Origin: Betaproteobacteria bacterium | GTDB lineage: Bacteria > Pseudomonadota > Gammaproteobacteria > Burkholderiales > JAEUOS01 | Length of the DNA: 64,000 nt | NCBI GenBank assembly: GCA_028292405.1 | Contig: JAQGMJ010000049.1 | Span: forward strand, 8,344 to 72,343 | Direction of reading: 5' to 3' | Shown: positions 18,577 through 22,325 of the stretch, piece after piece | How positions within the stretch are numbered: position 1 is the stretch's first letter | Layout of the letters: each line of letters starts with the position of its first letter | Program-made: the position numbers and the translations under genes | The notes under the pieces: model-generated | What the model was told of the DNA's origin: nothing | The model's database searches: none | The model's input: the letters and a program-made list of their open reading frames with translations, nothing else

Positions 18577-19791
18577 ATGACCGAGCAAAACGTCAAAGAT
18601 ACTCCAAAGCCGGCCGGCGTGACGCCGACGCAGGCCGGCGGCCTGCACGCGCCCGGCGCCGGCCGGCCTTGCGCGCCGGATGCCGGCGCTGCCAACGCCG
18701 CTGCCGATCTTGCCATCAGCACCCTGGCGCGGCGCGCCGGTAGGCCGCGTTTCGGTACCCTGAACGGGGGGATTGGTTTTCCCGGCGCGCCCCTGGCGCA
18801 GATGGGCGGGCAGGGCGCAGCCGGCGAGCCGATCGCCGAAATCCAGCCCGCCCGGGACGACGCCGACGCCGGCCAGCCGGAGTCGCCGCCGCCCGTTGGG
18901 CAAACATCCGGCAGCGGGCCTGGTCCCGAACCTGGCCGCGGGTCTAATACCGGGTCTAATACCGGGTCTAATACCGGGTCTAGTCCAGGGTCTAGTCCCA
19001 ACGTGGACCCCTTCAGCCCGCGCCAGATGCTGGAAGACTGGTTTGCCACCCCCCAGGGCGCCTACATCCTGGAGTGGGAAATGGCGCGCCTGGACCAGGC
19101 CGTCGCCGACATCTTCGGCTACTACGCCGTGCAGATCGGCATGCCGGGCATCGACTTCTTGCGCGCCAACCGCATCACCAGCCGGCTTACCGCCAGCCTG
19201 GTCGGCCGCCCCAGCGTCTATGCCGACGCCCATGAACTGCCGTTTGATTCCGAGTCTCTGGACCTGGTGGTGCTGCCGCACCTGCTCGAATTTTCCAGCG
19301 AGCCGCATCAGATCCTGCGCGAAGTCGAGCGCGTGCTGCGCCCCGAGGGCCAGGTGATCATCCTCTGCTTCAACCCGGTCAGCCTGTGGGGAGTAAAAAA
19401 GATGTTCACCCCTTCGCAGAGCGTGCCCTGGAGCGGAGAGTTCGTCAGCGTGCTGCGCATGAAGGACTGGCTCAAGCTGCTCAACTTCGAAATGCGCGGC
19501 GGCCGCTTCGGCCGCTACCGCCCGCCCTATATCTCCGAAAAGTGGCTGAGCCGCTTCGGCTTCCTCGAACACGCCGGCGACCGCTGGTGGCCGGTGGCCG
19601 GCGCCGTCTACATGATGCAGGCGACCAAGCGCGTGCCCGGCATGCGCATCATCACCCCCTCCTGGCGCAAGGCGCGCAAGGCCGAGGCGCTGGCGGCCAG
19701 CACCAACGGCGCCAACCGCACAGAGCGCAACATTACCCTCGCCCCCCAATACGTCCACAGCAACCCCCAAAAGAAAAGCACCAACGAATGA
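18577..19791 (+). CDS. SAM-dependent methyltransferase type 11 (YafS-like) with long low-complexity N-terminal extension
   Basis: [35 protein letters not shown]; conserved position between gloB and rnhA; start uncertain. Confidence 0.85.
18940..18999 (+). repeat. 12-bp tandem repeat: (gggtctaatacc)x3 plus (gggtctagtccm)x2, encoding GSNT/GSSP
   Basis: Directly visible in the sequence. Confidence 0.9.
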
Positions 19792-20246
19792 GCGACAGCA
19801 CCACCGCCGGCCCGGTTGTCATCTACACCGACGGCGCCTGCAAAGGCAATCCCGGCCCCGGCGGCTGGGGCGTATACCTCAAAAGCGGCGACAACGAAAA
19901 AGAACTCTGCGGCGGCGAAGCCCACACCACCAACAACCGCATGGAACTGATGGCCGTGATCGAGGCGCTCAATGCTCTCAAGCGCGCCTGCGACGTGGTG
20001 CTCTATACCGACTCCAACTACGTCCGCCAGGGCATCACCACCTGGATCCACTCCTGGAAACTCAAGGGCTGGAAAACCGCCGACAAAAAGCCGGTGAAAA
20101 ACGAAGATCTGTGGAAAGCCCTGGAAGAAGCCGCCAAGCGCCACAAGGTGGATTGGCGCTGGGTGAAGGGGCATGCGGGCGACCCGGGGAACGAGCGGGC
20201 GGATGCGCTGGCCAATCAGGGGGTGGAGTTGGCGAGGGGGAAGTAG
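19788..20246 (+). CDS. rnhA: Ribonuclease HI
   Basis: [43 protein letters not shown]. Confidence 0.97.
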
Positions 20247-20266
20247 GCTCAGTTTCTCAGCCGCTG

Positions 20267-20321
20267 CTTAGTACGTCTCCTCCCCTTCAAGGGGAGGGAC
20301 AGGATAGGGATGGGGTGAAGC
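20267..20321 (+). repeat. Left REP-like inverted repeat with internal palindrome ctcccct-tca-aggggag
   Basis: cttagtacgtctcctccccttcaaggggagggacaggatagggatggggtgaagc. Confidence 0.9.
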
Positions 20322-20326
20322 CCCAT

Positions 20327-20698
20327 TCAACCACCAATACCGCTTCCCTCCCTCTCCGCCAACACCCTGCAAATCTCCTCCAGCACATCGTCCAGCTGAT
20401 TCAACACCTCGTTGTTCCAGAACCGCAGCACGCGAAATCCCGCCTGTTCAAGTAATGCCGTTCGGGCGTTGTCCATCTTTTGCTGCTGCGCGTGTTGCCC
20501 GCCGTCCACCTCGATGACCAGGCTGCGTTCCAGGCAAACGAAGTCCAAAACGAACTTGCGGTAGGGATGTTGGCGGCGGAACTTCACGCCTAGTCTTTCA
20601 CCTTGCAGATGCCACCAGAGCTTGTTTTCAGCGTCGGTCATGGTGTGACGTAGCTTTACCGAAACGCGACGGGTGGATTTGCTGGTTTGGCCTTTCAT
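20327..20698 (-). CDS. DUF559 / Vsr-like endonuclease domain protein
   Basis: MTDAENKLW, KFRRQHP, LDF, IEVDGGQH, GFRVLRFWNNEV. Confidence 0.9.
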   Translation of the reverse strand: MKGQTSKSTRRVSVKLRHTMTDAENKLWWHLQGERLGVKFRRQHPYRKFVLDFVCLERSLVIEVDGGQHAQQQKMDNARTALLEQAGFRVLRFWNNEVLNQLDDVLEEICRVLAEREGSGIGG

Positions 20699-20711
20699 GT
20701 CGTCTATTTTT

Positions 20712-20766
20712 GCTTTACCCCATCCCCACCCTGTCCCTCCCCTTGAAGGGGAGGAGACGTACTAAG
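20712..20766 (-). repeat. Right REP-like inverted repeat
   Basis: Reverse complement matches 20267-20321 with 3 mismatches. Confidence 0.9.
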
Positions 20767-20778
20767 TTGCTCTGATCC

Positions 20779-22041
20779 TCAATACGCCGGCTTCGCCTGG
20801 TAATCCACCACCAGGTGCGCCAAGAGCCGCACCCCCAGCAGCAGCCCGCTCTCATCCACATAAAAATACGGCGAGTGGTTCGACGGCGCCTGGTGGGCGT
20901 CCTGCCCTTTTGGGGTGATGCCGATAAAGTAAAACGCGCCGGGAATCTCTTTCTGGAAGTACGAGAAGTCCTCGCCGCCGCCGGTTCTCGGAATGTGGGC
21001 GACGCCTTGTTCACCGGCGACGCGGGTGAGCGTCGGCAGGCTCCATAGCGTCAGCTTGGGGTCGTTCACCGTCACCGGGTAGCCCTTGACCATGTGCACG
21101 TCGGCGGTGGCGCGGCAGGCGCAGGCGATGTTGGTTGCCGTGTCGGCGATGCGCTGGCGCAAGTCTTCGCGCTGGCCTTCGTCGAAGGTGCGGTAGGTGC
21201 CGCGCATCACCACTTCATCGGGAATGATGTTTTCGCGCACCCCGCCGTGGATCGCGCCTATGGTGACCACCGCCGGGTTTTCCATTACGTCCATCTGCCG
21301 CGACACCAAGGTCTGCATGCCGAGGATGATCTGGGCGGAAGCGACGATGGGGTCGACCCCCAGCCAGGGCATGGCACCGTGGGTCTGGCGGCCCTTGACC
21401 GTGATGGAAAAGTTGTCGGTCGAAGCCATCATCGCGCCGGGGCGGTAGCCGATGGTGCCGGCGTTGAGGTGGGAGATCACATGCAGGCCGAAAATCACGT
21501 CCGCCTTCGGGTTGGCCAGGGCGTGCTCCTCGATCATCATCTTGGCGCCGCCGTTTTCACCCTCGGGCAGGCCTTCCTCGGCCGGCTGGAAAATGAATTT
21601 CACCGTGCCGCAAATCTGCTCGCGCAGGCCGGCCAGCAGTTCGGCCACGCCCATCAATATGGCGGTGTGGCAGTCGTGGCCGCAGGCGTGCATGGCGCCG
21701 ACTTCCTGGCCCATCCACTCGGTACGCACCTTGGAGGCGAACGGCACGTCGGCCATTTCGGTCACCGGCAGGGCATCCATGTCGGCGCGCAGCGCCACGC
21801 AGGGGCCGGGCTTGCCGCCTTTGAGCGTCGCCACCACGCCGGTATGGGCCACGGCGACCCGAACCTCGTCCAGCCCCAGGCTGCGCAAATGGTCGGCGAC
21901 GATTTTCGAGGTACGCACCTCGCGGTTGCCCAACTCGGGATGGGCGTGAAAGTCGCGGCGCCAGGCCAGCACCTTGGGTTCGAGGGCGGCGGCGCCGGCT
22001 TCGAGGCGGGCGATCAGGGAGGTTTCGGTCGGGGCATTCAT
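20779..22041 (-). CDS. M20 family amidohydrolase
   Basis: HPELG, LRADMDALP, MHACGHD, FQPAEEG, GEDF, NHSP; start MNAPTE. Confidence 0.92.
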   Translation of the reverse strand: MNAPTETSLIARLEAGAAALEPKVLAWRRDFHAHPELGNREVRTSKIVADHLRSLGLDEVRVAVAHTGVVATLKGGKPGPCVALRADMDALPVTEMADVPFASKVRTEWMGQEVGAMHACGHDCHTAILMGVAELLAGLREQICGTVKFIFQPAEEGLPEGENGGAKMMIEEHALANPKADVIFGLHVISHLNAGTIGYRPGAMMASTDNFSITVKGRQTHGAMPWLGVDPIVASAQIILGMQTLVSRQMDVMENPAVVTIGAIHGGVRENIIPDEVVMRGTYRTFDEGQREDLRQRIADTATNIACACRATADVHMVKGYPVTVNDPKLTLWSLPTLTRVAGEQGVAHIPRTGGGEDFSYFQKEIPGAFYFIGITPKGQDAHQAPSNHSPYFYVDESGLLLGVRLLAHLVVDYQAKPAY

Positions 22042-22158
22042 GATCGGCCTTAAGCGCAACAAGGATGCGGGAATTCTACCCGGCGTGGATCGGGCAAGCC
22101 CGGCGAGGCCGCCAACATGAGAAAACGCCCTGAAAGAAGTCCCTTGGGGGAGCTGAGC

Positions 22159-22325
22159 TTTTTTCGGAAAATCGCGGGCCGTGTCGACCACCAACGTGGT
22201 CGCCTGGGCCAAAACAACGGTAAATCGCGGTGCTTTTTACAAAAAATCGCGGGCTGCGCTGACCATAAGGGTGGTCGCCCGAACCAAAACAACGGTAAAT
22301 CACGGTGCTTTTTCCAAAAATCCGC
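22159..22325. repeat. 75-bp imperfect tandem repeat (about 2.2 copies, degenerate third to about 22380) with conserved bulged hairpin
   Basis: gtggtcgcc at 22196 and 22271; ccaaaacaacggtaaatcRcggtgcttttt occurs twice. Confidence 0.85.

Follow-up and report, generated by a model that had tools for sequence, protein, structure and literature searches.

A DUF559 nuclease gene enclosed by inward triplex-type repeats: a candidate partner of the BoxC/PIT/TMECO repeat family

BoxC, PIT and TMECO repeats have been known since the 1990s from hundreds of genomes, in which they raise local variability; as PMC4666352 presents them, their origin and mechanism were left open. The same account describes triplexes formed by these motifs in vitro (CD and NMR are shown for TMECO only), a structure that is impossible as RNA, and names no transposase, integrase or gene class linked to them (PMC4666352). 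Neither in vivo nor in duplex DNA did Holder et al. find a stable triplex. By the account in bioRxiv 10.1101/2021.07.10.451892, REPIN–RAYT systems occur in single copy, are inherited vertically and do not occur on plasmids, and the repeats need them in order to duplicate. The BRE repeats of Betaproteobacteria are described as tandem elements of ~90 bp, and the CIR and RPE repeats are listed in PMC3184786 without a link to DUF559. On the protein side, YcjD was placed near Vsr by profile comparison, according to PMC1189080, and the enzyme I-Bth0305I is described as nicking or cleaving DNA with a Vsr-like EDxHD site (PMC3239194). A 2026 paper on EefABC treats ycjD as a hypothetical gene (PMC12817139), and the papers that we found assign no function to DUF559/YcjD. 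Our search for a link between DUF559, YcjD or COG2852 and triplex repeats covered full-text literature, with most subscription journals and supplements outside its scope, and found none; the supplementary flanking-gene table of PMC4666352 may include ycjD. Here we describe a gene–repeat system that is real, widespread and apparently undescribed.

The window is a 64,000-nt stretch of contig JAQGMJ010000049.1 from a betaproteobacterial assembly (GCA_028292405.1), and positions given without a contig name refer to it. It contains a 500-bp repeat–gene–repeat unit without a transposase, in which a stand-alone, YcjD-like DUF559 gene (20327–20698, minus strand; 123 residues, with a predicted Vsr-like PD-(D/E)XK nuclease fold) lies between two 55-bp inverted arms. 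The left arm (20267–20321, plus strand) and the right arm (20712–20766, minus strand) both point into the cassette, stand 390 nt apart and are identical at 52 of 55 positions; the mismatches fall at arm positions 38, 40 and 51, and the outer 37 are perfect. The gap between gene and arm is 5 bp at the stop side and 13 bp at the start side, before the ATG. These coordinates and identities confirm a first-pass annotation of the DNA, which had also reported the absence of a transposase (Pfam finds no DDE, HUH or serine transposase domain in the unit's protein) and of a target-site duplication (there is no direct repeat of 2–12 bp at the two junctions). It had likewise placed the unit correctly just after rnhA (RNase H; 19788–20246, plus strand), the left host neighbor, which lies outside the cassette; the rnhA stop codon occupies 20244–20246 and the left arm begins 20 bp further on. 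The right host neighbor, an M20 amidohydrolase gene (20779–22044, minus strand; the start codon is our choice, and the open frame extends to 22212), converges on the cassette and in relatives without the cassette faces rnhA directly. The G+C content of the unit is 56%, against 65% for the genome, and third-position G+C is 0.69 in the DUF559 gene versus 0.83 and 0.86 in its neighbors. Two tandem repeats were seen nearby in the window: a 12-bp unit in 4.7 copies (18939–18994), within a long frame ahead of the methyltransferase-like gene that precedes rnhA, and a 75-bp unit in 2.2 copies (22157–22320), upstream of the M20 gene.

Each arm carries the hairpin CCTCCCCT-TCA-AGGGGAGG (20279–20297 on the left, 20736–20754 on the right), for which DNA folding gives −10.1 kcal/mol and z scores of −2.7 and −2.9. 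The arm as a whole runs from a C-rich stem through a TTCAA loop, a G-rich stem and a 3-nt loop to a third strand in mirror image of the G-rich stem. In the left arm, an outer stretch of ~12 bp, seen in this genus only, is followed by the hairpin, its purine arm (20291–20298), an ACA loop, a third strand (20302–20309, GGATAGGG) with two departures from the mirror, and a tail. The third strand of the right arm (20724–20731, GGGTGGGG on the minus strand) mirrors its purine arm in full. The part of the arm that is kept across taxa comprises the hairpin, the 3-nt loop and the mirrored purine strand. The first annotation described a hairpin with a purine-rich tail; the conserved feature is the three-strand mirror and not the hairpin alone.

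The mirrored strand follows the base rule of a purine triplex. We scored G opposite G, and A or T opposite A, as fits. In 130 motifs, drawn from 83 homologue loci, the rule holds at 622 of 650 positions, compared with a shuffle mean of 460 and maximum of 492; the two terminal G's fixed by the search pattern are left out of this count, and motifs that are kin to one another are non-independent. Restricting the count to the 34 unique arm/strand combinations gave 143 fits in 170 positions (shuffle mean 102, maximum 124). These counts show covariation of the third strand of the kind that a DNA triplex would require. A strict triplex scan of the genome returned nine motifs, all belonging to this repeat family, and none in two controls; the right arm passes it, and the left arm carries its two departures. 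The arms do not match the strict TMECO consensus of three 9-nt strands and show several mismatches to it, because their strands are of 8 rather than 9 bp and their loop is TTCAA. Judged by its sequence, each arm is a variant of the BoxC/PIT/TMECO triplex repeats, in an 8-bp form. Other readings of the arms were tried and dropped: neither is called as a terminator, and the five Rfam matches in 20150–20900 all fall far below their gathering scores. A T:G mismatch at the stem foot, as a conserved substrate of Vsr type, is present in this arm and replaced by a C–G pair in most relatives.

Searching the 5.5-Mb genome with a profile of the arm gave 44 distinct copies, grouped in 29 clusters; 40 of the copies score E<0.01, and the reversed genome gave none, so the repeat occurs beyond chance. 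Solo and paired copies are dispersed, and the repeat family suspected earlier is to that extent real, but it is a variant of motifs already described in PMC4666352. Nine clusters hold gene-less inward dimers of ~130–170 bp laid out like the cassette. Their spacers (eight were compared) measure 39–55 nt and are mostly unrelated to each other; in two dimers from separate sites, however, the spacers are related, suggesting that a whole dimer was copied. The gene has no such dispersed counterpart: no further DNA resembling it was found in this genome, the one remaining DUF559-like match, a longer and distant protein, has no repeats, and this gene alone is enclosed by an inward repeat pair. As a separate observation, an IS-like element (IS3-like by our reading) seems to have interrupted a repeat dimer whose counterpart in a congener is intact; the two halves (C25:43770–43939 and C72:69197–69518) lie at contig ends.

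The pairing of gene and repeat extends far beyond this genome. We pooled 118 homologue loci, found by protein similarity or gene name and not by their flanks, and scored 107 of them, ten having too little flank and one being a duplicate. Inward repeats occur on both sides at 59/107 loci and on at least one side at 96/107; control positions shifted by 950 bp gave 0/205 and 8/205, and inward repeats were also absent around longer or fused DUF559-like genes (0/19) and the rnhA genes of other genera (0/17). By the detector used, 11 of the 107 loci have no inward repeat. Within the clade of the window's protein the counts are 30/34 for both sides and 34/34 for at least one; outside it, they are 29/73 and 62/73. 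Such a comparison of flanking sequences shows the gene–repeat pairing to be family-wide. The enrichment of DUF559 genes for flanking repeats over shifted controls is what the mobile-system proposal of the first-pass annotation called for.

The type of repeat follows the protein as well. On a quick maximum-likelihood tree of 116 proteins and 115 columns, 36 of the 37 rows with a TCAA-loop repeat form one clade (SH-aLRT 99) and one lies outside; the label needs three changes against a shuffled mean of 31.4. Other loop labels cluster weakly, the TTGCG type requiring 14 changes versus 17.9 when shuffled. The TCAA clade spans many betaproteobacterial families and includes three records labelled Desulfuromonadales or Deltaproteobacteria, although the cross-phylum rows are MAG contigs for which mis-binning is possible; genomes of the same order carry other DUF559 clades with other loops. 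As far as the tree and the aligned flanks indicate, repeat type is shown to track one protein clade, in line with the co-divergence suggested earlier.

Across the order, repeat and gene also tend to occur together. In a set of 249 genomes that excludes this one and its congener, a DUF559 homologue is present in 25/33 genomes with the TTCAA pattern and in 53/216 without it, a one-copy count that partly reflects the cassette's own ends. Among genomes with five or more TTCAA copies, 16/17 have a homologue: 11 of the 17 could be shown to carry a TCAA-flanked gene, five have only hits of another type or hits outside the retrieved loci, and one has none. By within-family permutation, p is about 0.0004 and 0.0005 for these counts. 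Homologues are patchy overall, being found in 80/251 genomes of the order. Further afield, four homologues, from Neisseria, Picosynechococcus, Azospirillum and Deinococcus, are bordered on each side, as judged by eye, by hairpin repeats of a related C/G-rich type whose orientation varies, and among 56 viral loci with the TTCAA pattern none has DUF559 within 600 bp.

Escherichia coli was compared in two genomes. K-12 has ycjD as its single DUF559 gene and 23 TMECO copies, one of them 168 bp from the 3′ end of ycjD, with a degenerate copy at the stop and none upstream; O157:H7 F3113 has 11 TMECO copies and no DUF559 gene. Repeats persist in genomes without the DUF559 gene. The K-12 locus has further structure of its own, namely a 39-bp direct repeat that duplicates the ycjD 3′ end beside triplex motifs (1821–1965 of the fetched locus) and a separate 17-bp inverted repeat at the 5′ end. 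Elsewhere, two near-identical DUF559 genes lie 4.2 kb apart on one contig, inside a larger duplicated block and among triplex-type dimer arrays.

Empty sites and changes of neighborhood bear on mobility. An rnhA match was obtained in 19 of 22 family genomes, and the cassette is present at this site only in this genome and one congener; a second congener (83% complete) has no rnhA match. In the other 17 genomes neither gene nor repeat lies at rnhA, the M20 gene being within the locus in 13 and directly facing rnhA in four. Sites without the cassette, which the first-pass annotation had asked for, therefore exist, and none of the genomes compared carries the gene at this locus without repeats. 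The 37 members of the TCAA clade fall into 17 neighborhoods by shared flanks (five flanks are too short to compare), including 12 genomes at one fatty-acid-oxidation (fadB/fadA-like) locus and six beside thiG; neighbor names at these loci are our reading of translations. In one of five aligned thiG cassettes the unit is inverted, the inverted copy being on a 1.7-kb MAG contig. Among 11 further close pairs, four are alike only over 385–445 bp, that is, over the gene and its repeats, and include two species of one genus; the remaining seven share flanks. In one genus, two genomes hold the cassette and an expanded repeat array between two LPS-core genes, where three of four congeners searched have a tight, repeat-free junction and the fourth has no match. 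In another, the cassette sits between two metH halves in one genome, 85 repeat-free bases take its place in a second, and it lies elsewhere in a third. In two host genes the DUF559 domain is part of the reading frame, with a repeat-coded peptide on either side; another long frame examined proved not to be an insertion. Relatives at many unrelated sites, homology that ends at the repeats, and filled and empty alleles show, from genome comparison, that the unit moves.

Its movement is slow. Nineteen repeat loci were compared with the congener, of which 13 are mappable and 11 of those are shared; the other two coincide with a change of the neighboring gene, and no clean repeat-only empty site was found between this genome and the sister species at the 13 mappable sites. 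Shared loci have changed internally: the interior of a dimer is inverted, a trimer has collapsed to one hybrid hairpin, and there are local duplications. Homologues are found in 28 of 72,556 plasmid records, many of them megabase replicons, and in 2 of 50,697 phage records, and of 5426 E. coli genomes 3378 have ycjD, nearly all of these at a single locus. Of the self-mobilizing, spreading system proposed at first, the movement of the unit is supported by the 17 neighborhoods and the empty sites, but it is slow, with one copy here, the same site in the sister species and 11/13 repeat sites shared. E. coli fabI–sapF alleles without ycjD were rejected as empty sites, a TetR/RND operon being found there in 3/3 fetched (PMC12817139). 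In the search for a clean empty site at the cassette's own locus, four soil runs yielded no cassette-skipping joint among the 15 listed of 71 joints, and no piece that spans the locus. The only other TCAA-clade cassette in this family lies at an Oxalobacteraceae-typical locus, either by transfer or on a contaminating contig (that genome is 6% contaminated).

The protein matches PF04480 (DUF559) at E 1.6e-37, with 128.2 bits against a gathering cut-off of 20.6; NCBIfam PRK09767 scores 89 bits, under its 218 cut-off, and Pfam adds only a sub-cut-off MTES_1575 match. An alignment of the window protein with 38 of 80 homologue loci (39 sequences) leaves E24, D52, E63, D65, H69 and D76 invariant; the invariant NNEVLN stretch is so because the search pattern imposed it. 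The predicted structure (pLDDT 84.6) best matches 3HRL (E 5e-10), followed by the I-Bth0305I domain (E 2e-4) and, lower, Vsr, and we regard the protein as a predicted nuclease with a Vsr-like PD-(D/E)XK fold. Against the sister species, at 92% protein identity, dN/dS is 0.06, which at the codon level shows purifying selection on the gene; dS is 0.70 for the DUF559 gene, 0.41 for the M20 gene and 0.24 for rnhA. The family is large (9,991 clusters at 50% identity, E up to 1e-10). A defense-system reading was set aside, PADLOC giving three weak domain matches only. A second, longer DUF559-like gene (C74:94418–94705 in this genome) is kept across this bacterial family without repeats. A CTGT-N8-CAG palindrome lies upstream of that gene at 6/17 loci, this genome's copy having none; it resembles a LexA box, hinting at an SOS-controlled nuclease.

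PD-(D/E)XK enzymes hydrolyse DNA and form no covalent intermediate, and this hydrolytic fold is incapable of HUH-like strand transfer. The joining of strands would for that reason have to come from host repair or template switching. In the mechanism that we propose, the repeat would fold into a hairpin and three-stranded DNA when single-stranded, during replication or transcription; the DUF559 nuclease would bind the folded repeat and nick at or near the fold; host repair or template switching would do the joining; and occasional copying, flipping or relocation of the cassette and of gene-less repeat pairs would result. Joining by the host would account for the low rates and for the lack of a target duplication, as well as for inversions, for collapse into solo hairpins and for local arrays. 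The cutting of the repeats is a step that we infer, and on balance we favor a nuclease that recognizes and nicks its own folded end repeats, with host repair completing rare copying, inversion, collapse and relocation. Since related units stand at many unrelated sites, and close relatives lack them at the corresponding positions, the enzyme is probably the partner so far missing for a known but unexplained family of bacterial repeats, which it would spread. The broader proposal is more tentative and falls somewhat short of an even chance: a widespread, undescribed class of transposase-free mobile elements in which a minimal Vsr-fold nuclease would read a three-stranded DNA fold at the ends of its own unit, bring about its own movement and give rise to the BoxC/PIT/TMECO repeats.

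The mobility evidence could also be read with the gene as inert cargo, the repeats being moved by a transposase encoded elsewhere, or by recombination of the host or slippage during replication. Palindrome geometry alone can yield collapse and inversion, as PMC4666352 describes, repeats persist where no partner gene is detected, and this genome does have three Y1 (HUH) transposase genes (C79:53327, C43:38387 and C86:35586). Those genes, however, lie on contigs without this repeat, with no TTCAA hairpin less than 1.5 kb away, and two possess their own, unrelated terminal inverted repeats of TIRYT type; a RAYT or TIRYT was rejected as the repeat's partner here. The only gene of this genome enclosed by an inward pair is the DUF559 gene, and cargo would not be expected to be one nuclease family across phyla, with a repeat type that tracks its tree and with invariant catalytic residues, which makes this reading unlikely. 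No more probable is a domesticated host function, in which a structure-specific repair or resolving nuclease would clear hairpins or triplexes at forks, the repeats being its substrate or control sites and relocation a rare side effect. Long residence (the 12 genomes at the fadB/fadA-like site, ycjD throughout much of E. coli), the low dN/dS and the rarity on plasmids and phages speak for it, but the patchy distribution does not, and the invasion of operon junctions and coding frames, together with the seeding of repeat arrays, looks selfish. This host role shares with our preferred explanation the step in which the enzyme acts on the repeat, and by analogy both may hold, as has been argued for RAYT.

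We give little credence to homing, in which the nuclease would cut gene-less dimers and the cassette would be copied in by gene conversion with the arms as homology. The nearest characterized structural relative is a homing endonuclease domain, the gene-less dimers share the inward layout, and conversion is suggested by the arms, which match over their outer 37 bp here but differ in the outermost 8 bp in the sister species; yet the single gene of this genome stands against nine dimers that are unfilled, the empty alleles of two genera are entirely free of repeats, and there is no intron, intein or separate DNA-binding domain. An ordinary or chance arrangement, in which repeats that resemble terminators or were inserted at random lie by coincidence around a Vsr-type repair gene, could appeal to the left hairpin, which lies between convergent genes 20–50 bp past the rnhA stop. 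It is scarcely tenable: the control counts of 0/205, 0/19 and 0/17 refute it, neither arm scores as a terminator, no Rfam match comes near threshold, no cytosine methyltransferase gene is adjacent, and TIGR00632 is far below cut-off.

The link between gene and repeat brings two puzzles, the origin of the repeats and the function of DUF559, within reach of experiments on a single 14-kDa protein, a single oligonucleotide and a K-12 knockout. If the broader proposal is true, bacteria would possess an enzyme specialized for intrastrand triplex DNA, which would also be the source so far missing for BoxC/PIT/TMECO repeats. An enzyme that reads the triplex would be biological evidence for a role of such folds in bacteria, and would reveal a route of mobility without transposase chemistry as well as a small structure-specific nuclease.

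Compared with the described systems, the repeat is closest to BoxC/PIT/TMECO, with which it shares, as those motifs are presented, the C-rich stem, short loop, G-rich stem, 3-nt loop and mirrored G-rich strand, the intergenic position, inverted pairs of two sub-types and the collapse to solo hairpins; it departs from the published account in that a specific nuclease family is here linked to the motifs (PMC4666352). The architecture has, by comparison, an analogue in REP/RAYT. As in REPtrons and REPIN–RAYT systems, so far as they are described (bioRxiv 10.1101/2021.07.10.451892; PMC3733652), a mostly single-copy nuclease gene lies in inverted palindromes and gene-less inverted doublets are dispersed; this genome has one short DUF559 gene within inverted palindromes, the 44 copies and the nine inward gene-less dimers. 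Long residence at one site, rarity on plasmids and a repeat type matched to the enzyme lineage, all features of the RAYT descriptions, recur here, and the life history, with a mostly single-copy, long-resident gene and slowly turning gene-less dimers, resembles that of RAYT/REPIN. The REPtron-like architecture on a different nuclease fold that the first-pass annotation had envisaged is borne out by the inward pairs around homologues and by a predicted fold that is Vsr-like, not HUH. The differences from RAYT are that the enzyme has a predicted Vsr-like PD-(D/E)XK domain and no HUH/Y1 tyrosine domain, that no GTAG stands beside the stem of this cassette's arms, that their repeat has a mirrored third strand, and that the DUF559 gene itself has been found at numerous sites, within the reading frames of other genes and in different phyla, in contrast to the non-jumping RAYTs of the published descriptions.

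TIRtrons offer a second likeness, being genes flanked by terminal inverted repeats of which some are self-complementary and some form dispersed families; TIRYTs, as described there, are Y1 tyrosine transposases with GGGGWSAS, whereas this protein has no Y1 domain and its arm reads AGGGACAG (PMC3733652). I-Bth0305I (PDB 3R3P) is likewise a Vsr-like catalytic fold in a selfish element, with EvDg.qH and a downstream Asp conserved, but it is presented as intron-encoded and bipartite and cuts the intron-less allele, in contrast to a bare 123-residue domain bounded by repeats in an intergenic position (PMC3239194). Classical IS elements and MITEs have terminal inverted repeats, as this unit does, together with a target-site duplication and a DDE, HUH or serine transposase, which it lacks. 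Vsr very-short-patch repair genes adjoin a cytosine methyltransferase gene; here the neighbors are rnhA and the M20 gene, and TIGR00632 scores 17.9 bits against a cut-off of 97.85. By sequence and predicted fold the protein is a clear member of DUF559/YcjD (PF04480; PDB 3HRL), and the cassette, classified by these features, falls outside the REPtron, TIRtron, IS/MITE, homing-endonuclease and Vsr-repair classes.
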